From Candidatus Aminicenantes bacterium (lineage in GTDB: Bacteria; Acidobacteriota; Aminicenantia; Aminicenantales; UBA4085): a stretch of 64,000 bases of DNA. The position numbers were made by a program, and so were the translations under genes. Below, one piece after another: positions 2,865 to 55,030 of the stretch. The notes beneath the pieces were generated by a model that searched no databases, had not been told where the DNA came from, and worked only from the letters and a program-made list of their open reading frames with translations. The stretch covers positions 14,556-78,555 of the forward strand of contig JAPKZG010000013.1 of the NCBI GenBank assembly GCA_026393895.1. The letters run 5' to 3'. Numbering within the stretch: the first letter of the stretch is position 1; each line of letters begins with the position of its first letter.

Positions 2865-3359
2865 TCAAGAATTTTTCTTCCGAGAGCAAGATGCAGCCAG
2901 GGCTACGGCTTCGATCATCCGCAGATGATATGCGTTTTTATGCGATTTCTCTTTATTTAACTCATGTATAAGGGCTGGATATTCCAAAATAATCCTCTCG
3001 GCCAGATTTCGCTTATTCGCCTTCCCATCCACTATAAAGAATTTCTCAAGCTCTTTGATGGAATGACTTTGAACCTTGATCCGCTTCTTCTTCCCCAATA
3101 CTTTTATTCTTGAAAATAAGAGTTCTAGATTCTTAGACGATCTCGAAGGATGGAGCCTTTTAATCGCCATTGCGCTTATGTCATAAAGCTCGATCTGTTC
3201 CCAAATGATATCGAGAATTCGATCCGCCTTTTCTTTTGTCCATTTTCCCGTAATAGTTTTCACTCGCCATTCCAAAAGATTGGAGCCGTCGAATATCGCA
3301 AGCCCGAGATACCGGGTGCCTGGATTGATTCCCAATATTCTATTATGTTCTCTGGTCAT
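2865..3359 (-). CDS. RuvC-like Holliday-junction resolvase family protein
   Basis: N-terminal 'ILGINPGTRYLGLAIFDG' matches RuvC/YqgF catalytic motif 'ILGIDPG.R.TG.A'; 164 aa typical size. Confidence 0.5.
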   Translation of the reverse strand: MTREHNRILGINPGTRYLGLAIFDGSNLLEWRVKTITGKWTKEKADRILDIIWEQIELYDISAMAIKRLHPSRSSKNLELLFSRIKVLGKKKRIKVQSHSIKELEKFFIVDGKANKRNLAERIILEYPALIHELNKEKSHKNAYHLRMIEAVALAASCSRKKNS

Positions 3360-3801
3360 AGCGTTTTAGCAGTTGTCGCAAAGGTTTTAAATTATTAAAA
3401 CCGTCCGTTCTGTTATTCTTGTTAATTAATTTTATTTCTTTATTATTGTTTGTGTGATCCTGCGTCACATACCTTGTGATCCGTCCGTCACATAGTTTGT
3501 GATTTAAAATCACATCTGGCTTCAAAAGAAAATATAGGCAGCGTCCATTAAGCCGTTTTTCTGCTAACAACTTGACTTTACGGTTGACTGTCTCCCGGCA
3601 GAGCCCGATTCGATCTGCTATCGTCTTTTGAGACGGAAAACACGTTTGGCTCTTGGAATTCGCATAAGAGGCCAAGACATTATAGACCGCAAGCCCGGTC
3701 GGCTTTAGAATATTGCCATATTGTTTCAAAATAGATTGGCTGATCCAATACCAATTCTTGTCATCTATTCGTCGAATATGATTTTGGGACTTGTGAATCA
3801 T
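3343..3801 (-). CDS. winged-helix/HTH DNA-binding protein (replication-initiator/DnaD-like N-terminal HTH); 3' end of ORF reads through a repeat array and may be over-called
   Basis: 'LAVYNVLASYAN...CFPSQKTIADRIGLCRETVNRKVKLL' classic wHTH; low-complexity Asn/Lys tail encoded by AT-rich repeat region 3441-3506. Confidence 0.45.
   Translation of the reverse strand: MIHKSQNHIRRIDDKNWYWISQSILKQYGNILKPTGLAVYNVLASYANSKSQTCFPSQKTIADRIGLCRETVNRKVKLLAEKRLNGRCLYFLLKPDVILNHKLCDGRITRYVTQDHTNNNKEIKLINKNNRTDGFNNLKPLRQLLKRYDQRT
3441..3506. repeat. array of GTCACATA-N2-TTGTGAT imperfect palindromes / TGTGAT half-sites (operator- or iteron-like)
   Basis: Read directly: tgtgtgatcc tgcGTCACATACCTTGTGATccgtccGTCACATAGTTTGTGATttaaaATCACAtc. 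Confidence 0.6.
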
Positions 3802-3953
3802 ATCTTCAATAATACTTCTTTCCTCAAACGTGCTCGCAGATGATTTGAGCGACGAGACAAAGATTCCGCCTCATTTCATTTATAGATTTACGAGACAGAC
3901 CCTGCATTTTAAGAATGCGGCGATATTTTTCATATATGTCGGGTCGTTTTCTT

Positions 3954-4232
3954 CTAGGCATGCTTTCGTCTCAGATATTCTTCCCTTTCTATTATCTTTC
4001 TCTTAATCATCCGGATAAGAGGAAAAAACAAAGCATCCACCAATACACTGTATATGCCTGACAATTTAATCACGTTAGTCAGGCTCGGCAGGCAAATGCC
4101 TTTTTCCCAGCGGGAGATCATTCCCGCACTCTTAAGATTCAGGATTTCCGCGACTTCCTTCTGCTTCAATCCGATAGCTTTTCTATATCTCCTTAGATTA
4201 TTCGGAATCTTTTTTATCTCGACCTTTTTCAT
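3954..4232 (-). CDS. XRE-family (Cro/CI-type) HTH transcriptional regulator
   Basis: 'LRRYRKAIGLKQKEVAEILNLKSAGMISRWEKG' canonical XRE HTH; 92 aa. Confidence 0.8.
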   Translation of the reverse strand: MKKVEIKKIPNNLRRYRKAIGLKQKEVAEILNLKSAGMISRWEKGICLPSLTNVIKLSGIYSVLVDALFFPLIRMIKRKIIEREEYLRRKHA

Positions 4233-4300
4233 ATGCTCTTGAATTAAGAATGATGTCTTTTCAGCTTAGGTCGAATGAAAATACAAAACAAGACGTAAAA

Positions 4301-4320
4301 AATTGCTTAAAAAGGCAATT
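4301..4320. promoter_or_regulatory. AATTGC-N8-GCAATT palindrome in divergent promoter region (candidate XRE operator)
   Basis: aattgcttaaaaaggcaatt read in sequence between divergent genes 3954..4232(-) and 4424..(+). Confidence 0.35.
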
Positions 4321-4423
4321 TTAGAGGATGTCTATGTAGAAATTGGGGATAAATCCATTTATTTATCGGATTACGCATTTTTTCCTGTCTTATATTCGAT
4401 TTATTCCTGCGTTATTCTGACTA

Positions 4424-4612
4424 ATGATGATTCTAAGCAAACGAGTAATTGAGGAATTTAAAGAGATCTACTATCGGGAATATGGAAAGAAAATCTCCGA
4501 CGAGGAAGCTCAAGAGATGGGACAAAATCTCCTTACTTTTTTTAAGATTATCTATCGGCCGATACCCGAAGATAAAAATAAGGAAAACAAAAGCCTCTCG
4601 GAATCCTCATAA
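4424..4612 (+). CDS. small hypothetical protein (62 aa)
   Basis: ORF divergent from XRE regulator, upstream of serine recombinase; no recognisable motif. Confidence 0.25.
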   Translation: MMILSKRVIEEFKEIYYREYGKKISDEEAQEMGQNLLTFFKIIYRPIPEDKNKENKSLSESS

Positions 4613-4665
4613 TTTCGGGCGCTTTTTTTTGACAATATTAATCTTCGCGCTACAATTAAATTAAT

Positions 4666-4687
4666 AAACCTTTTTATAAAAAGGTTT
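4666..4687. repeat. perfect 22-bp palindrome AAACCTTTTTATAAAAAGGTTT immediately upstream of serine recombinase gene (candidate recombination/operator site); second hairpin GGTCTCTTTGAGACC at 4706..4720
   Basis: Read directly in sequence; centred on TA dinucleotide. Confidence 0.5.
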
Positions 4688-4750
4688 GGGAATCTTTATC
4701 AAAAAGGTCTCTTTGAGACCCATTAACGGGTTCCCATGCCTTAATATCTT

Positions 4751-6520
4751 ATGCTTCGCTATTTCATCTACTGCCGAAAATCTACAGAAGCCGAAGACCG
4801 ACAGGTCCTTTCGCTTGAATCTCAAATAAACGAACTAAAACGACTCTCCGAGAGATTAAATCTCTCCGTTATTGACATCCTTATTGAATCTCGGTCAGCA
4901 AAGTCGCCAGGCCGACCGCATTTTAACGAAATGCTAAAACGAATTAGTCAGAAGAAGGCCGATGGGATTATCTGTTGGAAACTGGATCGCTTGGCAAGAA
5001 ATCCTATTGACGGAGGCCAGATCAGTTGGATGCTCCAAAAGGGGATTATTAAACATATCCAGACCTTCGATAGAGCCTACTTTCCTGAAGACAATGTCCT
5101 ATTGATGAATGTCGAGTTCGGAATGGCAAACCAATTTATCTTGGATTTGGGAAAGAACGTTAAAAGAGGGCTTAAAACGAAAGCTGAAAAGGGTTGGCTT
5201 CCAACGCTTGCGCCTCTTGGTTATTTAAATGAAAAAACAAGGGAAAAAGGAAAAAAAGAAATTCTTAAAGATCCCGAAAGATTTTCTCTAATAAAAAGGA
5301 TGTGGGACATGATGCTCACAGGAAATTACACCCCGCCAAAGATCGCTTATATAGCAAATAACGACTGGGGATACAAAACTCGGCAAGGAAAGCCATTGGT
5401 AAAAAGCACCATCTACCGGCTCTTTTCCAATCCTTTTTATTCGGGCTGGTTTGAATACCCGAAAGGAAGTGGCAACTGGTTAAAGGGAAGCCACGAACCG
5501 ATGATTACTCAAAAGGAATACGATAAAGTTCAAATACTTCTGGGTAAAAATGGCAAGCCTAGACTCAAAAAACACGAATTTGCGTTTACTGGTCTTATTC
5601 GATGCGGAGAGTGCGGAGCCACGGTCACGGCAGAAGAAAAAAACCAAATCATCTGCTCGAAGTGCAAATACAAATTCTCTTTAAATAACAGATACGAATG
5701 TCCAAAGTGTGCTACTCCTATTGAGATAATGAAGAAACCCACTATCCTCAATTATGTCTATTATCATTGCACAAAGAAAATAATGCCAGATTGCTCCCAG
5801 GGATATATAGAAGTAAATGAACTCGAAAAACAGATTGATTTTTATCTATCAAACATCCATATCTCGGAAGGATTTAAAAATTGGGCTATAAATAATCTAA
5901 AAGAAGAAAACGAGAAAGAAGCTTATTCAAGAGAATCAATCTTTGCTTCTCAAAGAAAAGCTTATGACAACTGCCTTAAGAAACTCGATAATCTTTTCCA
6001 ATTGAAAATCTCTCCTGCAAATACTGATGGGAGTCTTCTATCAGACGAAGAATACGGAAAACAAAAAATCGGATTTTTAAGAGAGAAAACCCGACTTGAA
6101 GAAATTATAAATGATAAAAGCGGCGGTATCGAGAAGTGGCTCCAAAAAGGAGAAAGAACTTTCAACTTCGCACTCAATGCTCGATATTGGTTTGAAAATG
6201 GGACACTCTTGGAGAAGTTTAAGATTTTAAAAGCTCTTGGCTCGAACCTGATTTTAAAAGACAAAAAACTTCATATTGATCTTAAAATACCTTTCACGGC
6301 TATAGGAACGGTCGTGAAGGAGGTTCCTACGGCCAGGTACGGGTTCGAACCTGAAAAATCAGACCAAAATGAAGCTAAACAAAACGATCTCTACTCCAAT
6401 ATTCCCATCGTGCTCCGCGCAATGAAGAAAGTTCGAACTTGGATCATCAGAAATGCTGATGCTTATGACGTTCCTGATTTGGAAAAGCCAACCGAGGATG
6501 CGCTTCCAATCCCCTTCTGA
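4751..6520 (+). CDS. large serine recombinase (resolvase/invertase catalytic domain + recombinase domain + zinc-ribbon)
   Basis: N-terminal 'YCRKSTEAEDRQVLSLESQ' (catalytic Ser region), 'DGIICWKLDRLARN'; Cys-rich zinc ribbon 'CGECGAT...CSKC...CPKC...YYHC'; 589 aa. Confidence 0.85.
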   Translation: MLRYFIYCRKSTEAEDRQVLSLESQINELKRLSERLNLSVIDILIESRSAKSPGRPHFNEMLKRISQKKADGIICWKLDRLARNPIDGGQISWMLQKGIIKHIQTFDRAYFPEDNVLLMNVEFGMANQFILDLGKNVKRGLKTKAEKGWLPTLAPLGYLNEKTREKGKKEILKDPERFSLIKRMWDMMLTGNYTPPKIAYIANNDWGYKTRQGKPLVKSTIYRLFSNPFYSGWFEYPKGSGNWLKGSHEPMITQKEYDKVQILLGKNGKPRLKKHEFAFTGLIRCGECGATVTAEEKNQIICSKCKYKFSLNNRYECPKCATPIEIMKKPTILNYVYYHCTKKIMPDCSQGYIEVNELEKQIDFYLSNIHISEGFKNWAINNLKEENEKEAYSRESIFASQRKAYDNCLKKLDNLFQLKISPANTDGSLLSDEEYGKQKIGFLREKTRLEEIINDKSGGIEKWLQKGERTFNFALNARYWFENGTLLEKFKILKALGSNLILKDKKLHIDLKIPFTAIGTVVKEVPTARYGFEPEKSDQNEAKQNDLYSNIPIVLRAMKKVRTWIIRNADAYDVPDLEKPTEDALPIPF

Positions 6521-43883: not shown

Positions 43884-44423
43884 TTATTTAAAGACGTCGA
43901 AATTGACGAAGTCGGCGTGATTCACGATGATCGCCTCGATCGTCCGCCGCCCGCCGTCCCCTTCCTTCGAGTGGGCGGCGATGATATGGACGACTTCCTC
44001 CGGCACTCCGTATTGAAAGGCGAAGGCCGCGCCGGAAATCGGGTGACGCAGAAGTTCGCCGGCCCGGCTCTTGACGAAGACGCCGTTCTCGAGCGCGTAC
44101 TCGAAAAGCTTTCCGACGTCGTGGAGTATCGCCCCGGCCAGGAGGGCGTCGCGGTCCACCCGGACCTTGCCGTGGTATTCCTTATGGAGGACATCGCCGA
44201 TGCCGACGGCGGTCATGGTCACGGACCGGGTGTGTTCGATGAGGCTGACGGCCGTCGTCTTGATGAGGAGCGTGAACGGCATCCGGGTCAGGTCGTATTC
44301 CGACCAACCGCTTTTTTTGACGGCCTCGAACCAGACCTTGAGCGTGAGCTCCTTCAGGCCCGAGTCGGCGATCTGCCCGATCTCGGGCAAAAGTTCGAGA
44401 ATTTTTTCGCGGGAAACGCTCAT
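43884..44423 (-). CDS. HD-domain phosphohydrolase
   Basis: 'GAILHDVGK' HD motif; 179 aa. Confidence 0.65.
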   Translation of the reverse strand: MSVSREKILELLPEIGQIADSGLKELTLKVWFEAVKKSGWSEYDLTRMPFTLLIKTTAVSLIEHTRSVTMTAVGIGDVLHKEYHGKVRVDRDALLAGAILHDVGKLFEYALENGVFVKSRAGELLRHPISGAAFAFQYGVPEEVVHIIAAHSKEGDGGRRTIEAIIVNHADFVNFDVFK

Positions 44424-45205
44424 GGAATCTTCCTTTCAACCGGGCCGTCGTAGACATAATCTTCCGGATCGATTTTCCGCATGGGCTTCATCCGGGTTTT
44501 TTCCTCGTGGACGTGGGCCACGAGTCCCGGGACGCGGGCGATCATGAAAAAGGCGTTGCCGATCTCGGGCGGGATGCTCAGGTCGCAGAACAGGGCGGCG
44601 ATCGCCCCGTCGACGTTGATCGGCAGGGGTTTCCCCAATTGCCCGGCCAGGACGGACTCGGTCAGGCGGGCGATCCGGACATGACGTCCAGCCAGGCCGA
44701 GTTCCTCGGCCAGGCCGAACAATTTCGCCGTCCGGGGGTCTTTCGTATGAAGGCGATGCCCGAAACCCGAGGCCCGTTTGCCCTTGGCCTTCATCTCGTC
44801 CAGAACGGCCTTGACCGCGGCCGTCTCGTCGCCGTCTCCGGCGTCGGCCTTTTGGGCGATGGCCAGAAACATCCTCTGGCCCTCCTCGATCGCTCCGCCG
44901 TGAAAGCGGTTGATCGCCAGGATTCCGGCCGCGACGGCGGCGTTCAATTCCGCGCCGGTCGAGGCGACGGTCCGTGCGGCCAAGGCCGACGGCGGGCTTG
45001 CCCCATGGTCGATGGACGAGACGAAAATCGCGTCAAGGAGCTTTCCGACGGCAGGCGTCGGCAACTCCCCTTTGAGGATGAGATATATGGCCTGGGCGAA
45101 GGTGACCTTCCCCATCAATTCGTCGATGAGATAACCCCGGGCCATGATCCGGTTGGGTTTCACTTCGGTGATCGCCGTCGGCCACTTTTCGGTGTTTTCG
45201 GGCAT
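44420..45205 (-). CDS. citryl-CoA lyase-like (citrate-synthase-fold small domain)
   Basis: 'SGFGHRLHTKDPR' citrate-synthase active-site signature; 262 aa; ORF-track N-terminal extension spurious. Confidence 0.65.
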   Translation of the reverse strand: MPENTEKWPTAITEVKPNRIMARGYLIDELMGKVTFAQAIYLILKGELPTPAVGKLLDAIFVSSIDHGASPPSALAARTVASTGAELNAAVAAGILAINRFHGGAIEEGQRMFLAIAQKADAGDGDETAAVKAVLDEMKAKGKRASGFGHRLHTKDPRTAKLFGLAEELGLAGRHVRIARLTESVLAGQLGKPLPINVDGAIAALFCDLSIPPEIGNAFFMIARVPGLVAHVHEEKTRMKPMRKIDPEDYVYDGPVERKIP

Positions 45206-45240
45206 CGTGATCCTCCTTCGCCTCCCGGCCCTCCGGCCGG

Positions 45241-46143
45241 TTATTTCTTCGCGGCCAGGAGTTCGGCGACCCGGCCGGGGATGTCGGCCGCGGCGTCGAC
45301 GACATGGACGCCGACTTCCCGCAGCCGTTTGACCTTGCTCTCGTAGGATCCGCGATTGCCCTCGACGATGGCCCCGGCGTGGGAAAACCGCGTTCCGGAT
45401 TTGGCCGCCTTGCCGCCGATGAAGGCCACCAGCGGCTTCGTGAACTTCTTCTGCTCGATCAGGTCGGCGACTTGTTCCTCCTGCGTCGTGCCGATCTCGC
45501 CGAACACCGCCACAGCTTTCGTTTCCGGGTCCTGTTCGAACAATTCCATGACTTCGGGGTGGGACGTACCTACGATCGAGTCGCCTCCGACGTGGACGAT
45601 CGTGCTCAAACCCAGCCCGGCCCGGCTCAGATCGTAGGCGATGGCGGAGGTCATCCCGCCGCTGCGGGAACTGACGCCCACCGGCCCGGGTTGGAACCAT
45701 TCCCTCGCCCGCTGGGCCCGGCCGCCGATCATTCCCAAAACCGCCTTGCCCGGGACCAACAGGCCGAGGGTGTTCGGGCCTACGAACCGGGCCCCGGCCG
45801 ATTTGGCCGCGGCCGCGATTTCCAGGACGTCGTAGATCGGGACCCGGTCGGGGACGATCACGAGCAGTTTCACCCCGGCCGCCAGGGCTTCCAGGGCGGC
45901 GTTCTTCACCAACGCCGCAGGGACGAAGATGACGCTGGCGTCGATCGACCCGACCTTCTCGCAGGCCTCCTCGACGGCGTCGAAGACGGGAATGCCGTAA
46001 ACATCCCGGCCGCCACGGCCGGGCGTAACCCCGCCCAAGACGTTGGTACCGTAATCCTTCATCAACTGGGCCCGGACGATGCCTTCGCGGCCGGTGATCC
46101 CCTGGATCAGGACTTTGGTTTTTTCGTCGACTAAAATGGCCAT
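45241..46143 (-). CDS. succinyl-CoA synthetase alpha-subunit-like (CoA-binding; citryl-CoA synthetase small subunit candidate)
   Basis: 'LIQGITGREG', phospho-His loop 'RFSHAGAIV'; 300 aa. Confidence 0.75.
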   Translation of the reverse strand: MAILVDEKTKVLIQGITGREGIVRAQLMKDYGTNVLGGVTPGRGGRDVYGIPVFDAVEEACEKVGSIDASVIFVPAALVKNAALEALAAGVKLLVIVPDRVPIYDVLEIAAAAKSAGARFVGPNTLGLLVPGKAVLGMIGGRAQRAREWFQPGPVGVSSRSGGMTSAIAYDLSRAGLGLSTIVHVGGDSIVGTSHPEVMELFEQDPETKAVAVFGEIGTTQEEQVADLIEQKKFTKPLVAFIGGKAAKSGTRFSHAGAIVEGNRGSYESKVKRLREVGVHVVDAAADIPGRVAELLAAKK

Positions 46144-46159
46144 TGATTTATCCGTACGC

Positions 46160-47779
46160 TCAAGACTTTTTCCGGATCCGGTCGCGGTATTCCTTCAGGC
46201 CGGGAATCGGCAGCTGAATGAAGATCGCCTGTTTTTCGTGGTAATTGCAGAAGATCTCGCAGGCCAGGCACTCCGTGCACTTGCCCTTTTTCACCTCCGC
46301 CTCGGGAATGGCCAGGACGGGCTTGCCTTCCTCGTCGAGTTTGAGGATCTTCGGAACGCAGGCGCCGACGCAGCCCTTGGACGCGCAATGGAGGCATTGG
46401 GAATGGTCGAAGGAAATCCGGCCGGTGAACGTGGCGAAGGAATACGCGCTGGTCGGGACCCTCGGCTCCTCCATGGGTTGGACCTCATGGACCATGCCGC
46501 CGTCCTCGGCGATCATCCCCGCCAGCCGGGCCGCACATTTTTCGGGCGCGTCGTCCCGGCCGTATCCCTCGACTCGGCCGGGTAGGTCCTGGAGGTACGT
46601 GTCCAGGATCCGGATCGCTTCCTCTTCGAAATTTCCGCCGAGGCGGATGACGGCCGGAATGTTCAGCTGTTCCTCGGCGAAAGCCTTCACCAATCCGCGG
46701 GCCGAGTTGTATTGTTCCTGGGAGGCCGCGCCCGAGCCCGAGGCAAAGTACCCCATGAGACCGGCCTGGCTGAGGATGACCTTGGCCGCCCGGTATACTT
46801 TGCTCGCCGGGGGGTTGCCGCTGGTGTCGCAATAATCGGCGATTTTAAAGCCCTTGGCCAAAACGGCGTCCATGGACATCATCGAACCGCCGCCGCCGGC
46901 CCCGTGAAACCCGATCAGCGTCTCGCCGGGTTCGGCCTGGTCGGCCATCTGGAGAAAGTAAAACGTTCCGCGGTGGTCCTTTTCCTCGACCCTGTAGGCG
47001 ATCCGCTCAAGTTCGGTCGGGGGACGGTCGAATTCGCGGGCGACTTCGATGCCCAGCTCCGGATGGCGGTAGACGGCATAATCGTCGACGACCAGGTGGC
47101 AATCGGCCGCCAGGATCCGGCCGTCGGCCGTCCGGACCATGGGATTGATCTCGACCGAGCGGGCGTCGGCCGCCCGGGCGATCGCGGACAATTTCGTCAA
47201 TATGTCGGCGATCTGGACTAGGGTCGGTCCGGAGATCCCGGCCTTCCGGACCATGTTCAAGGCCTCGAATTCGCGAAGGCCGGTGCGGACGTCGATCAAC
47301 CGGCGGACGATCCGGTCGGGGTGGAGACGGGCGATTTCCTCCACCCCCGTCCCGCCGACGGAGCTGAAAACGAGGAGGGGGCACTTGGCCGCGTCGTCCA
47401 TGACGATCCCGGCGAAATATTCGAACTCGATGGCCAGTTTTTCCTCGACCAGAACACGGTCGACGACATAGTTATTGACCTTCATTCCGAGCAGGGACGC
47501 GGCTTTCGCCTCGGCTTCGGCGGGCGAATCGGCAAACTGAATGCCGCCGAGACCGGCCCGGCCGGTCACCCAGACCTGGATCTTCAAAACGACCGGGCGG
47601 CCAAGCCGTTCGGCGATCGCCCGGGCTTCGGCCGGAGAGGAGGCGACGGCGCCCTCGGGAACGGGGACGCCGCCTTCGCGGAGGAGCTTTTTACTCTGAT
47701 ATTCATATAAGCGGGCCAAGGGAATCTCTCCACCAATGATTGAATCGACAGTATAGCGAAAATCCGCCGTTTTCGCCAA
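46160..47779 (-). CDS. ATP-grasp succinyl-CoA synthetase beta-like subunit with C-terminal 2x[4Fe-4S] ferredoxin domain
   Basis: 'LYEYQSKKLL' SucC-like N-term; C-terminal 'CLHCASKGCVGACVP' and 'CTECLACEIFC' ferredoxin motifs; 539 aa. Confidence 0.65.
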   Translation of the reverse strand: MAKTADFRYTVDSIIGGEIPLARLYEYQSKKLLREGGVPVPEGAVASSPAEARAIAERLGRPVVLKIQVWVTGRAGLGGIQFADSPAEAEAKAASLLGMKVNNYVVDRVLVEEKLAIEFEYFAGIVMDDAAKCPLLVFSSVGGTGVEEIARLHPDRIVRRLIDVRTGLREFEALNMVRKAGISGPTLVQIADILTKLSAIARAADARSVEINPMVRTADGRILAADCHLVVDDYAVYRHPELGIEVAREFDRPPTELERIAYRVEEKDHRGTFYFLQMADQAEPGETLIGFHGAGGGGSMMSMDAVLAKGFKIADYCDTSGNPPASKVYRAAKVILSQAGLMGYFASGSGAASQEQYNSARGLVKAFAEEQLNIPAVIRLGGNFEEEAIRILDTYLQDLPGRVEGYGRDDAPEKCAARLAGMIAEDGGMVHEVQPMEEPRVPTSAYSFATFTGRISFDHSQCLHCASKGCVGACVPKILKLDEEGKPVLAIPEAEVKKGKCTECLACEIFCNYHEKQAIFIQLPIPGLKEYRDRIRKKS

Positions 47780-47925: not shown

Positions 47926-50900
47926 ATGAGCGCTTCAGCCGAGGGAAAGACCTGCCCGAAGTGCCAGGCCTTCAATTTTTCCGGCGACGTTTTTTGTTTC
48001 AATTGCGGGACGAATCTCGGAGACCAGGGGACTCTTTCCCTGCCCGGAGCACCGGGTCCCTCCCCGGCGGCGGCCGATCTTCCGGATTTGCCTTCCGGGA
48101 CGCGTTTCGCCGACAGGTATCTTATCATCGAAGAAATCGGGTGCGGGAGCATGGGCCGGGTCTTCAAGGCCAAGGACCTGAAGCTGGACCAGACCGTCGT
48201 CCTGAAGATGATCCGGCCGGAGCATTCTTCGAGTCCGATGGTCGTCAACCTCTTTAAAAAAGAAACGTCGCTGGCCCGGTCCCTCTCCCAGGAAAACATC
48301 ATCCGCGTCTTCGACCTGGGCGAAAGCCAGGGGGTGACCTTCATCTCCATGGAATATGTCCCCGGGCAGAATCTCGAGCAGCTCCTGCAAGCTTCCGGGA
48401 CATTGACCGAGGCCACAGCCGTATCCATCACCCGCCAGATATGCCGGGCCCTGGACGCGGCCCACAAACGGGGGATCATCCATCGGGACCTCAAACCTCA
48501 AAACATCCTGATCGACGCCAACGGCCGGGTTCGGGTGGCCGATTTCGGGTTGGCCCAAACCATTGAGGTTTCGTCCAAAAATGTTCCGGGCCGCATCGTT
48601 GGCACTCCGGCATATCTGTCTCCCGAGCAGGCCCGAGGAGAGGAGGCCGACGCCCGCTCCGACATTTACGCCCTGGGCGTCATCATGTACGAGATACTGA
48701 CCGGCCGTAAGCCCTTTACGGCCGATACCATTGCGGGGTATCTCGAAAAGCACCTCCATGAAAAACCGAAGTCGCCCAAAACCTGGAATCCGGGCCTCTC
48801 TCACCGCTTGGAGATGACGATTCTCCGTTGCCTGGAAAAAGACCCGGACAAGCGCTTCCCGAGCGCCGGACGGGTCTTACAAACCCTGGAGGAGCGGCGG
48901 CTGCCGGCTTCGGCGGACGCGACCAAATCGCGTCGCCGTAACAGAAACCGGTTTGTCGTCTCCGCGGCCGCCCTCGGCCTTACCGCGCTCGGAATTTACT
49001 TTTTTTTCCTCCGCAACCCCGCCCCCCCCGCTCCTTCAAGCGACCGTACATCCGTGGCGGTCATGTACTTTGAGAACAACACCGGAGACCCGAACCTCGA
49101 ATACCTGCGCAAGGGGTTGTGCTACCAGGTCATCCAATCCCTCCTCCAATCCGCGCGCCTGCGGGTCATCACCACCGACCGGTTGTTCGACATCCTGAGA
49201 GACCGGAATCTTCTCGGGAACGAAACCTACTCCACTAATGACCTTAAAAAAGTGGCCGAGCGGGCCCAGGTTCGGTATATCCTTCAGGGCAACTACGCTA
49301 AAATAGGCCGAATGTACAAGGTCAACTCGTTCCTGCTCGACACGAACACCTGGGAATCGGCCGGATCCATCCAAAGCGAAGTGGAGGACCTGAATCAACT
49401 GAACTCCGTGGTCGAACGGATGACCCCGGAGATCAAGGCCGCTCTTCCGATTCCCCGCGACCAAATATCCGCGGAATCCGCCCGACGCCTCGATAAAATC
49501 ACGACGAGTTCCCCCGAAGCTCTCACGCATTACATCGAGGGGGAAACGCTCTTCAAGGAAGGAAAGTTCCGGAAAAGCTCCGACGCCTATCGCCAAGCGA
49601 TCGCTCTCGACCCCGAATTCGCCCGGGCTTACATGAACCTCGCCGAAAACTCTTTGACGCTGGGGTTGCGGGCCGAAGCTAGAACCCAAGTGGAAAAAGC
49701 GATCGACCTGGCCGCCGCCGGCCGGGCCTCACTTCGCGATCAGCTTCTATTCCAGGGATTTTACAGCATGACTTTCGGGACGTCCGTTCGGGAAGCCGTC
49801 AAACATTATCAAAAGCTCCTCTCCCTCTACCCGGACGATGAGGACGGCCTGATATTCCTCGGATCCCTCTATCGAACTCTTGAGGAATGGGACCTGTCCC
49901 GGGAATGCTTTGAACGGCTTCTTCGGCATAATAAATTCAACCCCGTGATTTACATCAACCTTTCCACGATTTACATGGCCCGGGGTTTCTATGCAAAGGC
50001 GGCCGACATCCTTCCTTCCGACCCCGATCGATTATCCGAATCCTTTCGCAATTTTTATCTCAGCCTTGTGTATCTTTGTCAGGGCCGATATGAAGAAGCG
50101 TTGGCCGAAATCGAAAATAAACTGAAGCCGGAGCCGGAGCGGCTCGGAAATCTTCTCATGAGGGGGAATATCCGCCAACTCAAAGGAGACCTCGCTTCGG
50201 CCGAGTCCGACTATCTTCAGGTCTTCAAAAACTCCGACATCGGCATGCAAACCCTCGGATTGAGCTCCCTGGCTCATCTGTACCTCCAGGAAGGCCGCTT
50301 CATAGAATACCGGGTTTTGATCGCCCAGGGGATCGGCCTCGCAAAAAAAACGGACATGAAGGAAGACGAATTCTACTTTCGTGCTCGTGAAGCCTCCGAA
50401 ATCGCCTCCCGGGGTGATTACGCCACAGCCGAAGAAAGCGCCCTCCAGGCCGTCCGTTTGGCCGAGGAGTTGGATGACATGAATTTTCGAGCCGAAGCCC
50501 TGAACCTTCTCGGAAAACTCCAGGCCGCCCGGGGGAAAAAGGCCGAAGCCGAAAAGACCGGAGACCAACTCAAGCGACTCATCGATGAAACCGGGCGAAA
50601 TTATCTGCTGAGATATTATCATCATTTAAAGGGGATGATCGCGCTAGCCGAAGGGGATCTTGCCTCGGCTTCGGATTATTGCCGAAAGGCGGGCGAAGGG
50701 CTGCCGTTTGAAAATAATACGTACACTGATATGCACGCATATTTTGACGAATCCCGGGCCAAGATCGCCGAGGAAGCCGGAGATACGGACAAGGCGATTT
50801 CCCTTTTCCGGGTCCTCATCGCCCGAACTTCGGGACGGCTCTGTTACGGCGATTTATTTGTCCGGAGCTACTATCGCCTGGGAAAACTGTTGCTCAAGAA

Positions 50901-51060
50901 AAATCTCCGGGCCGAGGCCGCCGACGCCTTCGAGACGTTCCTCCGGATGTGGGCCGGGGCCGATCCCGGTCTGGCCGAAGTGACCGACGCCCGGGCCGAG
51001 TTGGCCGCCCTCAAGTCCCCCGTTCGGCCGCCTGCGCCCAAAACAACTCCCGCTGTTTGA
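47926..51060 (+). CDS. Ser/Thr protein kinase with N-terminal zinc ribbon, TM segment and C-terminal TPR repeats
   Basis: Zn-ribbon 'CPKCQ...CFNCG'; kinase 'HRDLKPQNIL', 'DFGLA', 'GTPAYLSPEQ'; long TPR region; ATG at 47926. Confidence 0.8.
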   Translation: MSASAEGKTCPKCQAFNFSGDVFCFNCGTNLGDQGTLSLPGAPGPSPAAADLPDLPSGTRFADRYLIIEEIGCGSMGRVFKAKDLKLDQTVVLKMIRPEHSSSPMVVNLFKKETSLARSLSQENIIRVFDLGESQGVTFISMEYVPGQNLEQLLQASGTLTEATAVSITRQICRALDAAHKRGIIHRDLKPQNILIDANGRVRVADFGLAQTIEVSSKNVPGRIVGTPAYLSPEQARGEEADARSDIYALGVIMYEILTGRKPFTADTIAGYLEKHLHEKPKSPKTWNPGLSHRLEMTILRCLEKDPDKRFPSAGRVLQTLEERRLPASADATKSRRRNRNRFVVSAAALGLTALGIYFFFLRNPAPPAPSSDRTSVAVMYFENNTGDPNLEYLRKGLCYQVIQSLLQSARLRVITTDRLFDILRDRNLLGNETYSTNDLKKVAERAQVRYILQGNYAKIGRMYKVNSFLLDTNTWESAGSIQSEVEDLNQLNSVVERMTPEIKAALPIPRDQISAESARRLDKITTSSPEALTHYIEGETLFKEGKFRKSSDAYRQAIALDPEFARAYMNLAENSLTLGLRAEARTQVEKAIDLAAAGRASLRDQLLFQGFYSMTFGTSVREAVKHYQKLLSLYPDDEDGLIFLGSLYRTLEEWDLSRECFERLLRHNKFNPVIYINLSTIYMARGFYAKAADILPSDPDRLSESFRNFYLSLVYLCQGRYEEALAEIENKLKPEPERLGNLLMRGNIRQLKGDLASAESDYLQVFKNSDIGMQTLGLSSLAHLYLQEGRFIEYRVLIAQGIGLAKKTDMKEDEFYFRAREASEIASRGDYATAEESALQAVRLAEELDDMNFRAEALNLLGKLQAARGKKAEAEKTGDQLKRLIDETGRNYLLRYYHHLKGMIALAEGDLASASDYCRKAGEGLPFENNTYTDMHAYFDESRAKIAEEAGDTDKAISLFRVLIARTSGRLCYGDLFVRSYYRLGKLLLKKNLRAEAADAFETFLRMWAGADPGLAEVTDARAELAALKSPVRPPAPKTTPAV

Positions 51061-52123
51061 TCAAAATCCGGTTGATCCGGCAGACGGCAACCGGGATCAT
51101 CCCGATTTTCCCGCTCTTCAAAGAGGCGGCGGGGGGACAGAACGCGCAGCGGTCGAGATACGGACAATTCCCGCAGGCCCGTTCGGACGTCTCGGCCCAA
51201 TCCATCCGTCCGCGGGCGTATTGGACGAGGACGTTCTTGTCGAGGTCCCCGGCGGATCGGAGAAAATCTCCGACCGTCCCGAAACAAAAACGGCGGGCCA
51301 CGTCCGCGGTCGGATGGACCCTGAAAAAATCCGCATAAAAATAACAGCCCCACAACCGCCCGTCGGGCGCCAGGGCGAGGCGGTCCCGCCCCGCCGAGCA
51401 ACCGAAAACACCGGAAGCGGCCGGGTGCCGGAAATTGATGAGCGGCATAGTCCGGCGGGCCCGCGGAAGGCGAAGAAAATATTTCCGGACCGACCGAAGC
51501 TCATGGGACAGCCGGTCCAGGGATCTTTTCCGCCACTCGACCTGATAATCAAACGACAGGAGCATGTTCGGGATTTTCCGTTCGGCGATATAGGCGATCG
51601 ATTTCGAAAGCAACCCTACGGTCCGGGGGCCGAAGACACTGTTCGTGGCCGGTTTGATACCCGGGTAACGGGGAAGGTCGTCAAGCAGCGATGACAATAT
51701 CCGGAAGCTTCCTTTCTGTCTTTCTTTTTCCTGGGCCAATCCGTCAAAGCTCAACATCAACTCGAAGCGGCGCTCGTTTAAAAAAGACAGAATCTCCGGG
51801 CTGAGAAGGGCGCCGTTGGTGGTCAGAACGTAGCGCAAGCGTTTCCGGGAACTTCGGTTCTCTTTCTCCAGACGCAGAACCGCCCGGCGGACCAGATCGA
51901 AAGCAAGGAGCGGTTCTCCGCCGTAAAACTGGATCACGGAGGAAGCGGACAAGAAGGGAAAAACCGCGGCACAGGCTTTGTCCAGGATTTTCCCCTCAAG
52001 AACCCTTGTGCCCCGGCGTTGATAACAATAACCGCAATGCCAAGGGCATCGCTCAGTCAGAATCAGCGAAAATGCGGAAAACTTCCCCTTGCCGGGAGGT
52101 TCCTTCAACGGCGGCCGGCTCAC
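51011..52123 (-). CDS. radical SAM / SPASM-domain enzyme (anSME-like peptide-modifying maturase)
   Basis: 'CPWHCGYC' CxxxCxxC; C-terminal Cys clusters 'CGNCPYLDRCAFCPP'; 370 aa. Confidence 0.75.
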   Translation of the reverse strand: MSRPPLKEPPGKGKFSAFSLILTERCPWHCGYCYQRRGTRVLEGKILDKACAAVFPFLSASSVIQFYGGEPLLAFDLVRRAVLRLEKENRSSRKRLRYVLTTNGALLSPEILSFLNERRFELMLSFDGLAQEKERQKGSFRILSSLLDDLPRYPGIKPATNSVFGPRTVGLLSKSIAYIAERKIPNMLLSFDYQVEWRKRSLDRLSHELRSVRKYFLRLPRARRTMPLINFRHPAASGVFGCSAGRDRLALAPDGRLWGCYFYADFFRVHPTADVARRFCFGTVGDFLRSAGDLDKNVLVQYARGRMDWAETSERACGNCPYLDRCAFCPPAASLKSGKIGMIPVAVCRINRILIKQRELFWAQAAERGT

Positions 52124-52141
52124 GGATTGGGGCGACGATAT

Positions 52142-52405
52142 TTATTTTTTAAAAAGCGTGACCACGATCGGGGGGACGATCGGATACTGCACACCACACC
52201 CGTGGTGCAGCATGTATGTTCCGGTCAAAACATTTTTATCTTTAAAGAGCCCATCCAGTTTAATAATGCATTTAAGGGCTTGGGCATAACGGTCCTTTTG
52301 GATCCTTGTGGCGTCCCGACCCGGTTTTTCCTTCCGAAGGTAGTCCTTGATGTACGCCACCAAGGGGTAGAAGTTGTCAATCTTGACGGGTTTTTTTCTT
52401 TTCAT
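52142..52405 (-). CDS. small protein (87 aa) immediately upstream of radical SAM/SPASM gene; candidate precursor peptide
   Basis: Position and size; C-terminal 'HHGCGVQYPIVPPIVV'; lower GC than flanks. Confidence 0.35.
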   Translation of the reverse strand: MKRKKPVKIDNFYPLVAYIKDYLRKEKPGRDATRIQKDRYAQALKCIIKLDGLFKDKNVLTGTYMLHHGCGVQYPIVPPIVVTLFKK

Positions 52406-52513
52406 GGGATCCCTCCTGATGGCCTCATCATGCGCTGAAGAAAAACGTTTGTCAACCGCATCAAGTCCGATTTTCCGGCTTCTTAGCGTAAGGGAAAAAG
52501 GGTCGAAGGGAAA

Positions 52514-55030
52514 TCAATTCCTCCGGCCGGCGGGTTTTCCAGACGGAGAAGGCCGAGCTTTCGCCCCCTGTCGTCCGCTTCCGAGTTTTGCCGGCGGGGG
52601 AACGGCGGCTTCGATTTTCATCCGGACTTCGCGCAAGGCCTCGGTCAGGCGTTTGGCCGAGACCGGACCGGCGGTCCCGATTTCGGGAGCGAACACCGCG
52701 ATTTTATATTCCTCGATCAGCCAACGAACTTCGTCCAAAGCCGCCCGGATTTCGGCCGGCTCCGCGGTCCCAAATCTTTTATTGAGCCCGGCCAGCGACT
52801 CGGCGAACGGAGCTATTTCGGCCGCTTTATTCCGGTCCTTTTCGGGGCTGTTTTTAGCCCGTTCGGCCCGGATCCGGAGCGCTTCAAGATAAGCGGGCAG
52901 CCGGTCGAGGCGGCCGGGCGGATAGATTTCGGCGAAATTCCGGGGCATCAAAGTTTCCAGTTCTGCCCGGATCGTCTCGACGAGCCCCTCGACCGCCTTG
53001 TTCCCCTGGTGGGTCATACCGATCGTATAAAGATCTGCCCGGACACCCTGATACCCGGCGAGCGCGCGTTTAACCGTTTCCATAAGAAGCTGGCCTTCGG
53101 CGAAAAGCGTTTTTACGAGACCGTCGGCGAAGGCCTGGCCTTCCGCCCGGTCCCGGATGTCCTTGCGGAACACCCGGACGCGGAGAGCTTCGAGCAGGGA
53201 TTTTTCGACCGCTGCTTTTCCGCCGAAATAAAGCGCCGCCCGCTGATGCTCCTCGGGAAAGACCAGAACCCGCTCCATAAATTTCAGGTCGCGGGCAAAT
53301 TTCCGGGAGAGCAGGGCTTCGACACCGCGCGGATGGGCCGCCGCGGCCTCCTCCGCGGTTTTATAGAGCCGGAGACCGACGTCTTTCGGCCCGGAAACGA
53401 GCGCGGGGTAGGCTGAAACGCCGCCGCCAATCCTGATTTCCACGGGAATCGAGTCCCAGTCCCAATCCGCGACGGCCGGCCGTTCCCATTGTTCGCAGAC
53501 TTTTTTCCAGGAAAATGAGCCGGTGTCGGCCACCGGCGCTTTCGGCCGTAAGCCAAGGAGCGGACCGTAATCCCGGCCGGAGGAGACTTCGTTGTCGGCC
53601 GCGTCCAGAACGGACAGCCGGATCTTCAAATGCTTCGGCATGTCGACGGCTTCCCAAATTTCGGCCGGGACTTCGGCCCGGAACCTGCGCCGGACGAATT
53701 CGGAAAGAGCCGCGGACAACGAACCCGGAGTCCGGGGCATTTCCCGGATGATCACGTCCGCCCGTTCGGCCGCCGGAACGAGCGTTTTCCGGTAGCGTTG
53801 AGGAAGCCCCTTGACCAGGGCGTGGATTTTCTCCCGGAAATAACCCGGAATCCCCCATTCGAGGGTCCCGATTTCGAGTTGGGGCAGGACGTCCGCCTTG
53901 ACCCTGATCGTCGCCCCGTCGTCCTCGGCGCCCGGAAGGAACCGGTATTGCACCCGGATTCTCCGGCCGCCGAAATTCAACTCGTCGGGATAGAGAGCGA
54001 CTTCGAAGACCGCGGGCCGGGACCGGACGACGTCCTCCTCGCTCATGAAGAGAAACGACTCCCCGCCTTGTTTTTCGATGAATTTGCGGAGGCCCTTGAG
54101 GTCATAGATCCCGGCCAGGCGCTCGGCATAGAAATTCGCGGCCTCGGCCTCGGGAACGACGATATCCCGCCGGCGCATTTTTTCCTCGAGCGCCTCGAAT
54201 CGGGCGCGCAGTTCCAGGTTGTGTTTGAGAAACCCGGGCGGTTCCTTCACCTGCCCGGCGAGCAACGCATCGCGGAAAAAAATTTTCCCGGCGGCCTCCG
54301 GGTCGACCGGGCCGTACGGCAATTCCCGGCGCGAAACGATCTCCAGGCCGAAGAGGGTCACCCTCTCGTCCGCCCGGACTTCTCCCCTGTTCCTGTCCCA
54401 GCGGGGATTTTCATACGCTCGCTGACAGAGATCACCGGCCAGGGCTTCGAGCCAGCCGGGCTCGATCCGGGCCGCCGTCCTCACGTAGAGCCGGCCGGTC
54501 TGGACGATCTCGGCCGCGACGATCCACACCGGAGGTTTCCCGAACAGGGACGAACCCGGAAAGAGCATAGCTTCCCGGCCGCGGGCGGCCGTATACATCT
54601 TTCCTTCCTTGAGGACGGCGACGTGAGACAACAACCCGGCGGCCGCGGCGCGGTGGATCGCGCCGTAGAGTTGTTTGGACATCGGAACGGGTTTGGATCG
54701 GCCGGGGGGGAATTTCTGCTCCCGGAGGATTTCGAGGATTTGGTCGTGGATGTAGACCCATTCCCGCATCCGCGGGAAGGACAGGAAATGTTCGCGACAG
54801 AACCGCCGCTTTTGGGTCGTGGAGCGGAGGCCCTCCCAGTCGCCGTGATAGCGGTCCCAGATGTTGAGGAGCGTCAGAAAGTCGGAATCGGGTTCGCGGA
54901 ACGGCGCGTGGCAGGAGTCGGCCTGAGCGGCTTTTTCGAGGGGCCGTTCGCGGGGATCGCGGATGCTGAGGGCCGAGGCGACGACCGCGGCCTCCCTCAG
55001 GCAATTCTCGGAAACGGCTTCGATCAACAT
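52514..55030 (-). CDS. hrpA: ATP-dependent RNA helicase HrpA, C-terminal part (HA2/OB/DUF3418-like)
   Basis: 'EAAVVASALSIRDPRERP' matches HrpA HA2 region; 838 aa. Confidence 0.8.
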   Translation of the reverse strand: MLIEAVSENCLREAAVVASALSIRDPRERPLEKAAQADSCHAPFREPDSDFLTLLNIWDRYHGDWEGLRSTTQKRRFCREHFLSFPRMREWVYIHDQILEILREQKFPPGRSKPVPMSKQLYGAIHRAAAAGLLSHVAVLKEGKMYTAARGREAMLFPGSSLFGKPPVWIVAAEIVQTGRLYVRTAARIEPGWLEALAGDLCQRAYENPRWDRNRGEVRADERVTLFGLEIVSRRELPYGPVDPEAAGKIFFRDALLAGQVKEPPGFLKHNLELRARFEALEEKMRRRDIVVPEAEAANFYAERLAGIYDLKGLRKFIEKQGGESFLFMSEEDVVRSRPAVFEVALYPDELNFGGRRIRVQYRFLPGAEDDGATIRVKADVLPQLEIGTLEWGIPGYFREKIHALVKGLPQRYRKTLVPAAERADVIIREMPRTPGSLSAALSEFVRRRFRAEVPAEIWEAVDMPKHLKIRLSVLDAADNEVSSGRDYGPLLGLRPKAPVADTGSFSWKKVCEQWERPAVADWDWDSIPVEIRIGGGVSAYPALVSGPKDVGLRLYKTAEEAAAAHPRGVEALLSRKFARDLKFMERVLVFPEEHQRAALYFGGKAAVEKSLLEALRVRVFRKDIRDRAEGQAFADGLVKTLFAEGQLLMETVKRALAGYQGVRADLYTIGMTHQGNKAVEGLVETIRAELETLMPRNFAEIYPPGRLDRLPAYLEALRIRAERAKNSPEKDRNKAAEIAPFAESLAGLNKRFGTAEPAEIRAALDEVRWLIEEYKIAVFAPEIGTAGPVSAKRLTEALREVRMKIEAAVPPPAKLGSGRQGAKARPSPSGKPAGRRN

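Follow-up and report, generated by a model that had tools for sequence, protein, structure and literature searches.

Pairs of a radical S-adenosylmethionine (SAM) enzyme with a SPASM domain and a small precursor peptide are already known among ribosomally synthesized peptides that are modified post-translationally (RiPPs). Here we compare with the closest described systems one such pair, and a sensor gene beside it, in a 64,000-nt stretch of Candidatus Aminicenantes bacterium DNA (assembly GCA_026393895.1, contig JAPKZG010000013.1, positions 14,556 to 78,555 of the forward strand). This stretch is referred to below as the window, and coordinates are counted from its first letter unless a locus (L number) is named. 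PapB, of the PapB/PapA (freyrasin) system, is a SPASM radical SAM enzyme that likewise acts on Cys-containing, repeatable units; the freyrasin motif is C-x3-D. CteB, the SCIFF maturase of thermocellin (PDB 5wgg/5why), is a thioether-forming SPASM enzyme with an N-terminal RiPP recognition element (RRE), the leader-binding domain that is usual in such maturases. The anaerobic sulfatase-maturating enzyme, anSME (PDB 4k36-4k39), has no RRE. ChlB (PDB 9gm3), a SPASM radical SAM enzyme of ~375 aa crystallized with a precursor leader, is the multiple cyclophane synthase of triceptides (PMC12912966).

Association of such clusters with sensors also has precedents. In streptococci, ~600 shp/rgg radical SAM RiPP clusters lie beside a tetratricopeptide repeat (TPR)-type peptide-sensing regulator (PMC9389541), and a report cited in that paper assigns SCIFF ranthipeptides a part in quorum sensing. 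Rgg is a cytoplasmic helix-turn-helix (HTH)-TPR receptor that senses a separate unmodified peptide, SHP, and the streptococcal clusters carry a peptidase/transporter. NCBIfam also associates peptide-modification clusters with large proteins that combine TPRs with a kinase or a cyclase, namely TIGR03903 (TOMM system kinase/cyclase fusion) and TIGR04510 (putative peptide modification system cyclase).

The locus in the window is an undescribed sensor-coupled radical SAM peptide cassette of the uncultured phylum Aminicenantes, in which peptide and modifying enzyme form a genuine conserved pair. Nothing was found in the literature on RiPPs, radical SAM, SPASM or ranthipeptides in Aminicenantes, nor on this family, and nothing relevant on radical SAM enzymes with a kinase or TPR receptor. 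The best model, which we consider probable, is a three-gene cassette, found mainly in Candidatus Aminicenantes, that makes a Cys-crosslinked peptide coupled to a sensor. The features of the precursor/enzyme operon are as follows.

52427..52455, minus strand: sigma-70-like promoter of the precursor/enzyme operon, TTGACA-17 nt-CATGAT, predicted from sequence
52411..52417, minus strand: ribosome-binding site AGGAGGG, 5 nt 5' of the ATG, kept in a 9-locus alignment
52142..52405, minus strand: small open reading frame (ORF), the precursor gene, 87 aa; starts MKRKKPVK and contains ...HHGCGVQYPIVPPIVVTLFKK
52232..52405, minus strand: precursor leader, residues 1-58; Lys-rich N-terminus, helix 13-25, conserved K-P-G loop, helix 34-55
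52142..52231, minus strand: precursor core, residues 59-87 plus stop; ...HHG-C70-GVQ-Y74-P-IVPPIVVTLFKK, with the Cys70 codon at 52196-52198
51011..52123, minus strand: radical SAM/SPASM peptide-modifying enzyme, 370 aa, without an RRE domain

An earlier sequence-only reading had proposed a RiPP locus of the precursor-then-maturase kind here, from an 87-aa ORF with a Lys-rich N-terminus and a Cys/Pro/Val-rich C-terminal segment; both ends of that ORF are present in the sequence as it described them. The ORF does lie upstream of the enzyme gene on the same strand. With GTG 52123 as the enzyme start the distance is 18 nt (52124-52141), not the 19 bp then given; with TTG 52108, the start implied by the 365-aa database protein P0001, it is 33 nt. 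The lower GC content noted for the small gene was also borne out (0.458, against 0.588 for the enzyme gene and ~0.63 for the flanking genes), and a lower-GC precursor gene is common, though not universal, among GC-rich relatives.

The promoter listed above was the sole promoter-like site within a 1.9-kb scan (50800-52700), and TTGACA and GCGCATGAT were kept across nine upstream regions of window-clade precursors in a DNA alignment. The small ORF is not a chance ORF, because it has a strong ribosome-binding site, an upstream promoter/ribosome-binding-site block that is conserved, and a leader whose ratio of nonsynonymous to synonymous substitution rates (dN/dS) is 0.13-0.47 in most pairwise comparisons. 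For the core, the ratio is 0.5-1.8. The leader is thus under purifying selection and the core relaxed. As read from these signals, a strong, conserved promoter drives a bicistronic operon of the 87-aa precursor and the RRE-less radical SAM/SPASM enzyme.

Note that conservation of the small ORF is visible only from the DNA upstream of enzyme homologues and not from a protein search: a single-sequence search with its product matched two proteins and no more, and the deposited protein identical to it is a hypothetical protein of a Candidatus Aminicenantes metagenome-assembled genome (MAG). Enzyme homologues were therefore taken as anchors, both close (62-81% identity) and distant (31-43%), from GTDB genomes and from metagenomes, with a scan of metagenome contigs contributing at least ~20 family loci. 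Close homologues had one or two small ORFs per locus at the equivalent position. The leader, roughly the first 58 residues, was kept in L001 (two copies), L003, L005, L086, L088, L090 and L092, with a consensus of a basic N-terminus, F/Y-P-L-V-x-Y-L-K-x-Y-L, a K-P-G loop and K-D-R-Y-x-x-A-V-K-C. The final 20-40 residues of these precursors were unconserved except for the Cys of a unit C-x3-[W/Y]-P, which occurs twice in L005 and L086 and three times in L021. In an AlphaFold2 model of the window precursor, helices 13-25 and 34-55 were predicted at a local confidence score (pLDDT) of 73-84, and the tail, with pLDDT below 50, was predicted to be disordered.

At nearly every distant locus an ORF of 60-130 aa lay directly upstream of the enzyme gene on the same strand, and small ORFs were found upstream of enzyme homologues in more than 55 loci overall. 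Across an alignment of 55 precursors no position was invariant apart from Met1 and a single C-terminal Cys; a Pro in the loop between the helices was conserved at 90% or more. The consensus anchored on that Cys was [P/G]-C-[P/L]-G-G-x-[P/L]-[I/R/L]-[I/V], with 7-20 residues after the Cys. Cores were repeated four times in L030, four times in L045 (where the gene is downstream of the enzyme) and six times, as GCEGGKPVIK, in L013; L001 and L023 had tandem precursor genes. No family was matched in Pfam and NCBIfam scans of all 55 precursors, and a hidden Markov model of the window-clade leader matched distant precursors weakly (L007, E 0.07). Membership of the distant ORFs in the family should accordingly be taken as resting on position, architecture, the invariant Cys and the loop Pro, and not on significant sequence similarity. 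A conserved leader joined to a hypervariable core with an invariant Cys is what identifies these ORFs as a family of RiPP precursors, and the Cys is presumably where modification occurs. The precursor-then-maturase logic of the sequence-only reading is supported by this architecture, by the Cys being present in 55/55 precursors and by the repeated cores; the lack of conservation that it had named as a refutation was not observed, the small ORF being kept both in syntenic and in non-syntenic, distant loci.

The enzyme has the features from which that reading had recognized it, namely the CxxxCxxC motif of the radical SAM cluster (C26-x3-C30-x2-C33, as CPWHCGYC) and auxiliary-cluster cysteines in the C-terminal part, here at positions 242, 260, 280, 317, 320, 326, 329 and 348. 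It passed the Pfam Radical_SAM model (PF04055) at 41.2 bits against a cutoff of 29.5. The only Pfam matches at E ≤ 0.1 were Radical_SAM and Fer4_12, and the SPASM model was not among them; this model probably misses the divergent domain of the enzyme, as motif and fold are both present. The seven-Cys SPASM motif is found as C242-x12-G-x4-C260, C317-x2-C320-x5-C326-x2-C329 and C348, and its cysteines were invariant across 36 homologues, with C280 conserved at 90% or more. An AlphaFold2 model of the enzyme (pLDDT 92) aligned over 378-389 columns with CteB and anSME at TM-scores of 0.73-0.75. The closest solved structures by fold were CteB 5wgg (E 2e-19, TM-score 0.75), anSME 4k37, ChlB, TigE and SuiB, and a profile search against solved structures gave the same order, with CteB first (E 1e-28).

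In an NCBIfam scan the enzyme passed no curated family cutoff. Its top matches were all peptide or protein maturases below cutoff: PapB, HxsB, the nif11-like peptide maturase, CcpM, the SCIFF maturase and QhpD. PapB (NF047865) was the top curated match, at E 1.2e-30 over residues 15-266, and the 106.9 bits obtained against a cutoff of 340 do not make the enzyme a member. The same holds for the SCIFF maturase model TIGR03974 (63 bits against 425). An N-terminal RRE was not found, since the radical SAM core begins as early as residue 15; the corresponding alignments start only at residue 97 of CteB and residue 108 of TigE. Nor was a PqqD-like (RRE) protein found in the window or among the neighbours clustered at ~90 loci of the family. 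The sequence-only reading had also named a known non-RiPP family, such as a sulfatase maturase with its cognate sulfatase, as what would refute it. An assignment as sulfatase maturase was rejected: the anaerobic sulfatase maturase model (TIGR03942) gave 32 bits against a cutoff of 349, and a sulfatase signature was absent from every frame of the whole window.

The enzyme family is large, with 1013 clusters at 50% identity matched at E ≤ 1e-30 in a profile search of 1.84 billion representative proteins. Its loci come mostly from Aminicenantes MAGs, with a few from Omnitrophota and from MAGs labelled Clostridia, and among the 80 best matches at least nine MAGs hold two to four enzyme copies. Six proteins of 700-1300 aa in the representative library (P0178, P0226, P0231, P0236, P0242 and P0252) contain two to four separate stretches matching the enzyme family; these could be fused tandem copies or read-through gene calls.

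Set beside the described pairs, the window-clade unit C-x3-X matches the i to i+4 spacing of freyrasin, but the acceptor Asp of freyrasin is absent, with Y, W, K or R in its place. Unlike PapA, the precursor has a long two-helix leader without a Pfam or NCBIfam match, and what is conserved at its locus is a receptor kinase, not a transporter or protease. The SCIFF precursor has six Cys, whereas the precursors here usually have one. With anSME the enzyme shares size, fold (TM-score 0.73), the lack of an RRE and a full set of auxiliary-cluster Cys, but its partner is a dedicated small peptide without C-x-P-x-R. ChlB may serve by analogy as a model for direct leader binding by a compact enzyme, although its chemistry involves aromatic residues in three-residue motifs, while in this family the Cys is invariant and aromatics are unconserved family-wide. 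To judge from its sequences, the module works much like a ranthipeptide/sactipeptide pair but lies outside all curated families. The RiPP pair proposed earlier stands. Its assignment to the sactipeptide/ranthipeptide type is not established: all curated cutoffs are failed, and that class is defined by a linkage that sequence does not reveal, a thioether joining the Cys sulfur to C-beta/gamma of an acceptor residue in ranthipeptides and to C-alpha in sactipeptides, of which the sequences show the invariant donor Cys. The RRE usual in such maturases is also absent.

What the sequence-only reading overlooked is the third conserved part of the locus, a convergent receptor-type Ser/Thr kinase, which changes the probable biology.

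47926..51060, plus strand: receptor-type Ser/Thr kinase, ~1044 aa; zinc ribbon, Hanks kinase domain, single transmembrane helix, TPR ectodomain
48124-48858, plus strand: Hanks kinase domain; Pkinase 188 bits against a cutoff of 31.7
48949-49014, plus strand: single transmembrane helix of the kinase; hydrophobic segment RFVVSAAALGLTALGIYFFFLR, with RRRNRNR before it

The catalytic motifs IHRDLKPQN (HRD) and VADFGLA (DFG) are present in the translation; relative to the 47740 ORF, homologues start at the position of its M63. After the transmembrane helix come ~680 residues with a weak FlgO/TolB_N-like region and many TPR model matches. The TPR part should face the periplasm, because of the positive-inside rule and the need of the kinase for ATP. 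Compared with Rgg, this sensor is membrane-anchored, with its TPR part predicted to face outward and with a Ser/Thr kinase or HTH output, and no separate signal peptide gene was seen. The kinase also matched TIGR03903 (E 1e-50, 172 bits against a cutoff of 706) and, over residues 404-934, TIGR04510 (E 1e-29, 103 bits against 400); unlike those proteins, it has no cyclase domain, and the associated enzyme is a radical SAM/SPASM enzyme and not a cyclodehydratase.

The kinase and enzyme genes are convergent and their 3' ends overlap by 50 nt (51011-51060). The same tail-to-tail arrangement, with a gap of -85 to +81 nt, was found in 31/34 loci in which both genes were full-length, including loci with enzymes of only 31-43% identity. 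The trio was kept in L090 even though both outer flanks differ there, and also in paralogous copies within one MAG. All-against-all clustering of neighbours at ~90 loci gave the enzyme and the kinase/sensor as the only widely conserved families; an HlyD-like adaptor occurred in five loci only. At the same junction, the 3' ends overlap by up to 85 nt in L003, L005, L007, L027, L086 and L088. As there is no room for terminators, transcription of either gene must read antisense into the other, and this read-through could be a regulatory feature.

In a sister clade the kinase is replaced by a protein of 600-640 aa encoded directly upstream of the precursor on the same strand. This protein has a conserved N-terminal segment SWKEIS..RTC.RWEK..GLPVHRI, one transmembrane segment, a TolB_N-like region and TPRs that align to the sensor part of the kinase. 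Sub-threshold HTH_23/HTH_28 matches were obtained in 4/4 such proteins tested, and the TolB_N-like region scored 22.0 bits against a cutoff of 22.4. The kind of sensor adjacent to the cassette was tallied over the 51 loci with at least 2.5 kb of upstream and at least 3.3 kb of downstream sequence.

Kinase-sensor: 31
HTH-sensor: 13
Kinase of another type: 1 (L109)
Neither: 6

Other large signalling proteins adjoin two of the six loci with neither (L036 and L045) and the short locus L040. Identities of enzyme and sensor were strongly correlated (Mantel r = 0.90, 0/2000 permutations), with r = 0.91 for the TPR part and r = 0.73 for the kinase domain; the correlation in part reflects shared phylogeny. 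L039 and L052, which belong to one genome, share 38% enzyme identity and 32% sensor identity, and the cassettes within one genome are old paralogues. These comparisons show precursor, enzyme and sensor to have been inherited as a unit across distant paralogues. Upstream of the intact cassette of L029, at 2894-5560 (plus strand) of that locus, three adjacent ORF fragments match successive parts of the kinase-sensor, which suggests a decayed second sensor gene. A few cassettes without a kinase, among them L063 (7514-8749, plus strand) and L017 (4365-8141, plus strand), have an HlyD-like adaptor downstream, with a MacB/FtsX-like permease also in L017, labels that were judged from N-terminal sequences alone; in this minority of loci the peptide might be exported by such a route.

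From these components we infer the chemistry, the export route and the relation of ligand to receptor. The enzyme would bind the helical leader directly and use 5'-deoxyadenosyl radical chemistry to modify the core near Cys70, the invariant residue. The likeliest product would be an intramolecular thioether ring from Cys70 to a residue four to seven positions downstream, with Tyr74 as the leading candidate; the repeat unit C-x3-X-P of multi-core relatives has the spacing of the C-x3-D rings that PapB forms in freyrasin. A functional link would connect sensor and modified peptide. In the favoured version the peptide would be exported, and possibly trimmed, by unlinked factors and perceived by the TPR ectodomain as an autoinducer-like signal; alternatively, the sensor might control production of the peptide in response to another cue. 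Perception of the peptide is favoured because the ectodomain is kept while the output is swapped, and because each paralogous cassette retains its own sensor. That each cassette comprises a private ligand-receptor pair, in which a crosslinked peptide released to the periplasm or outside is recognized by the TPR ectodomain of the kinase or HTH regulator, is put forward tentatively and is doubtful as yet. As the precursor/enzyme pair is nearly always accompanied by a membrane receptor-type kinase, it may serve in peptide signalling and not simply resemble an antibiotic cluster.

Several observations weigh against this model. The proposed chemistry is drawn by analogy from relatives only, and the acceptor position is unconserved, with Y, W, R, K, V or T at +4. 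No signal peptide was detected by hydropathy, and neighbour clustering gave no conserved protease or transporter, which leaves the route of the peptide to the periplasmic TPR domain unexplained. The HTH and TolB_N/FlgO-like assignments are consistent among the proteins but sub-threshold, and should be considered putative. Covariation between core and TPR part was not significant when phylogeny was controlled (partial r = 0.09, 160/2000 permutations); because cores evolve too fast for the test to be informative, this null result neither supports nor excludes ligand-receptor pairing. Finally, the eight conserved C-terminal Cys of the enzyme, including C280, equal the count in anSME, where they fully ligate two auxiliary clusters and the reaction is a different one. 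The same pair of genes might accordingly perform another chemistry, an anSME-like oxidation of the invariant Cys (for example to formylglycine) or some other non-thioether modification of it. In addition to the Cys count, anSME is among the top structural matches (E 4e-16, TM-score 0.73), is of equal length and also lacks an RRE; Arg at +4 together with Pro at +1 or +5, as seen in many cores, loosely recalls the sulfatase motif C-x-P-x-R. We nevertheless hold such a chemistry to be unlikely: by sequence the enzyme is nearer to thioether maturases (E 1e-30 for PapB and 2e-17 for the SCIFF maturase, against 5e-08 for anSME), profile and fold searches alike put CteB and not anSME first, the cores do not contain the actual sulfatase motif, and the window has no sulfatase.

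Regarding the sensor, the peptide may not be its ligand at all. The transmembrane TPR kinase or HTH protein might switch on production of the peptide or control it post-translationally, and the peptide would act elsewhere, perhaps as an antimicrobial, as a metal or redox factor or, inside the cell, as an effector; or the kinase might phosphorylate the precursor or the enzyme. The layout of the HTH clade, with the sensor gene directly upstream of the precursor on the same strand, is the usual one for a local regulator; the module is without a conserved exporter, core/TPR covariation was not detected, and within the window clade the leader keeps a Ser/Thr after its invariant Ala32. Against phosphorylation, no Ser/Thr is conserved over the whole precursor family. 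Regulation alone also leaves unexplained why the ectodomain keeps its type when the output changes from kinase to HTH, and why each paralogous cassette has its own sensor, whose TPR part tracks the enzyme most closely; we count this explanation as possible, though not as the probable one. It is very unlikely that the small ORF is not the substrate but an accessory protein, such as a chaperone replacing the RRE, with the enzyme modifying another target, for example the kinase. The long (~58 aa), folded and conserved leader and the lack of an RRE in the enzyme would suit such a role, but it poorly fits a hypervariable, disordered tail with a single invariant Cys and two to six tandem repeats of the Cys unit, and the C-terminus of the kinase is without a Cys-containing motif. 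An anti-phage defence pair of a viperin-like radical SAM enzyme and a Ser/Thr kinase would account for the matches of PADLOC pVip models to the enzyme (E 3e-11 and 5e-07) and of PD-T4-6 and mad6 kinase models to the kinase domain. The pVip matches are confined to residues 20-139, the generic radical SAM core, and those to the kinase lie within residues 58-335, its generic Hanks domain. Viperins lack both the full SPASM domain and the cognate peptide that this enzyme has, and the small ORF had no match in the PADLOC scan. This reading, which we regard as scarcely credible, was rejected on the ground that generic domains alone were matched.

For the sensor-coupled peptide cassette, what is unusual is not the pairing of enzyme and precursor but its systematic, co-inherited coupling to a receptor-type sensor. 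Neither the enzyme nor the peptide of this family passes a curated model. If the peptide is the ligand, it would be a first ligand class for the widespread orphan transmembrane TPR receptor kinases, an Aminicenantes genome could hold several orthogonal peptide signalling channels, and bacteria would have their own equivalent of the pairs of peptide hormone and receptor kinase found in plants. Even if it is not, a compact RRE-less maturase and short, repeatable C-x3-X-P units are attractive for enzymology and peptide engineering.

Upstream of the cassette, at 52514-56229 (minus strand), an HrpA-type helicase is split into ORFs of 401 and 838 aa. An intact homologue of 1282 aa in L005 matches with its residues 1-399 in one frame and 431-1269 in another, so that ~31 residues are missing at the junction near 55033-55069. 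Either the gene is disrupted or the MAG was assembled wrongly here. GC content is 0.34-0.47 over 1-26000, approximately the first 26 kb, and 0.56-0.64 over the rest of the window. The low-GC part resembles a mobile element or foreign island, which probably explains why the sequence-only reading described the RiPP locus as lying in the host chromosome. Beside the kinase, at 44420-47779 (minus strand), are genes for a succinyl-CoA-synthetase-like beta subunit (539 aa, with a ferredoxin-like Cys-rich C-terminal tail), its alpha counterpart (300 aa) and a small citrate-synthase-like protein. In L003 and L005, which are syntenic, this cluster is followed by genes for an HD protein and an aconitase. 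The set looks like the citryl-CoA synthetase/lyase of a reductive tricarboxylic acid cycle variant.

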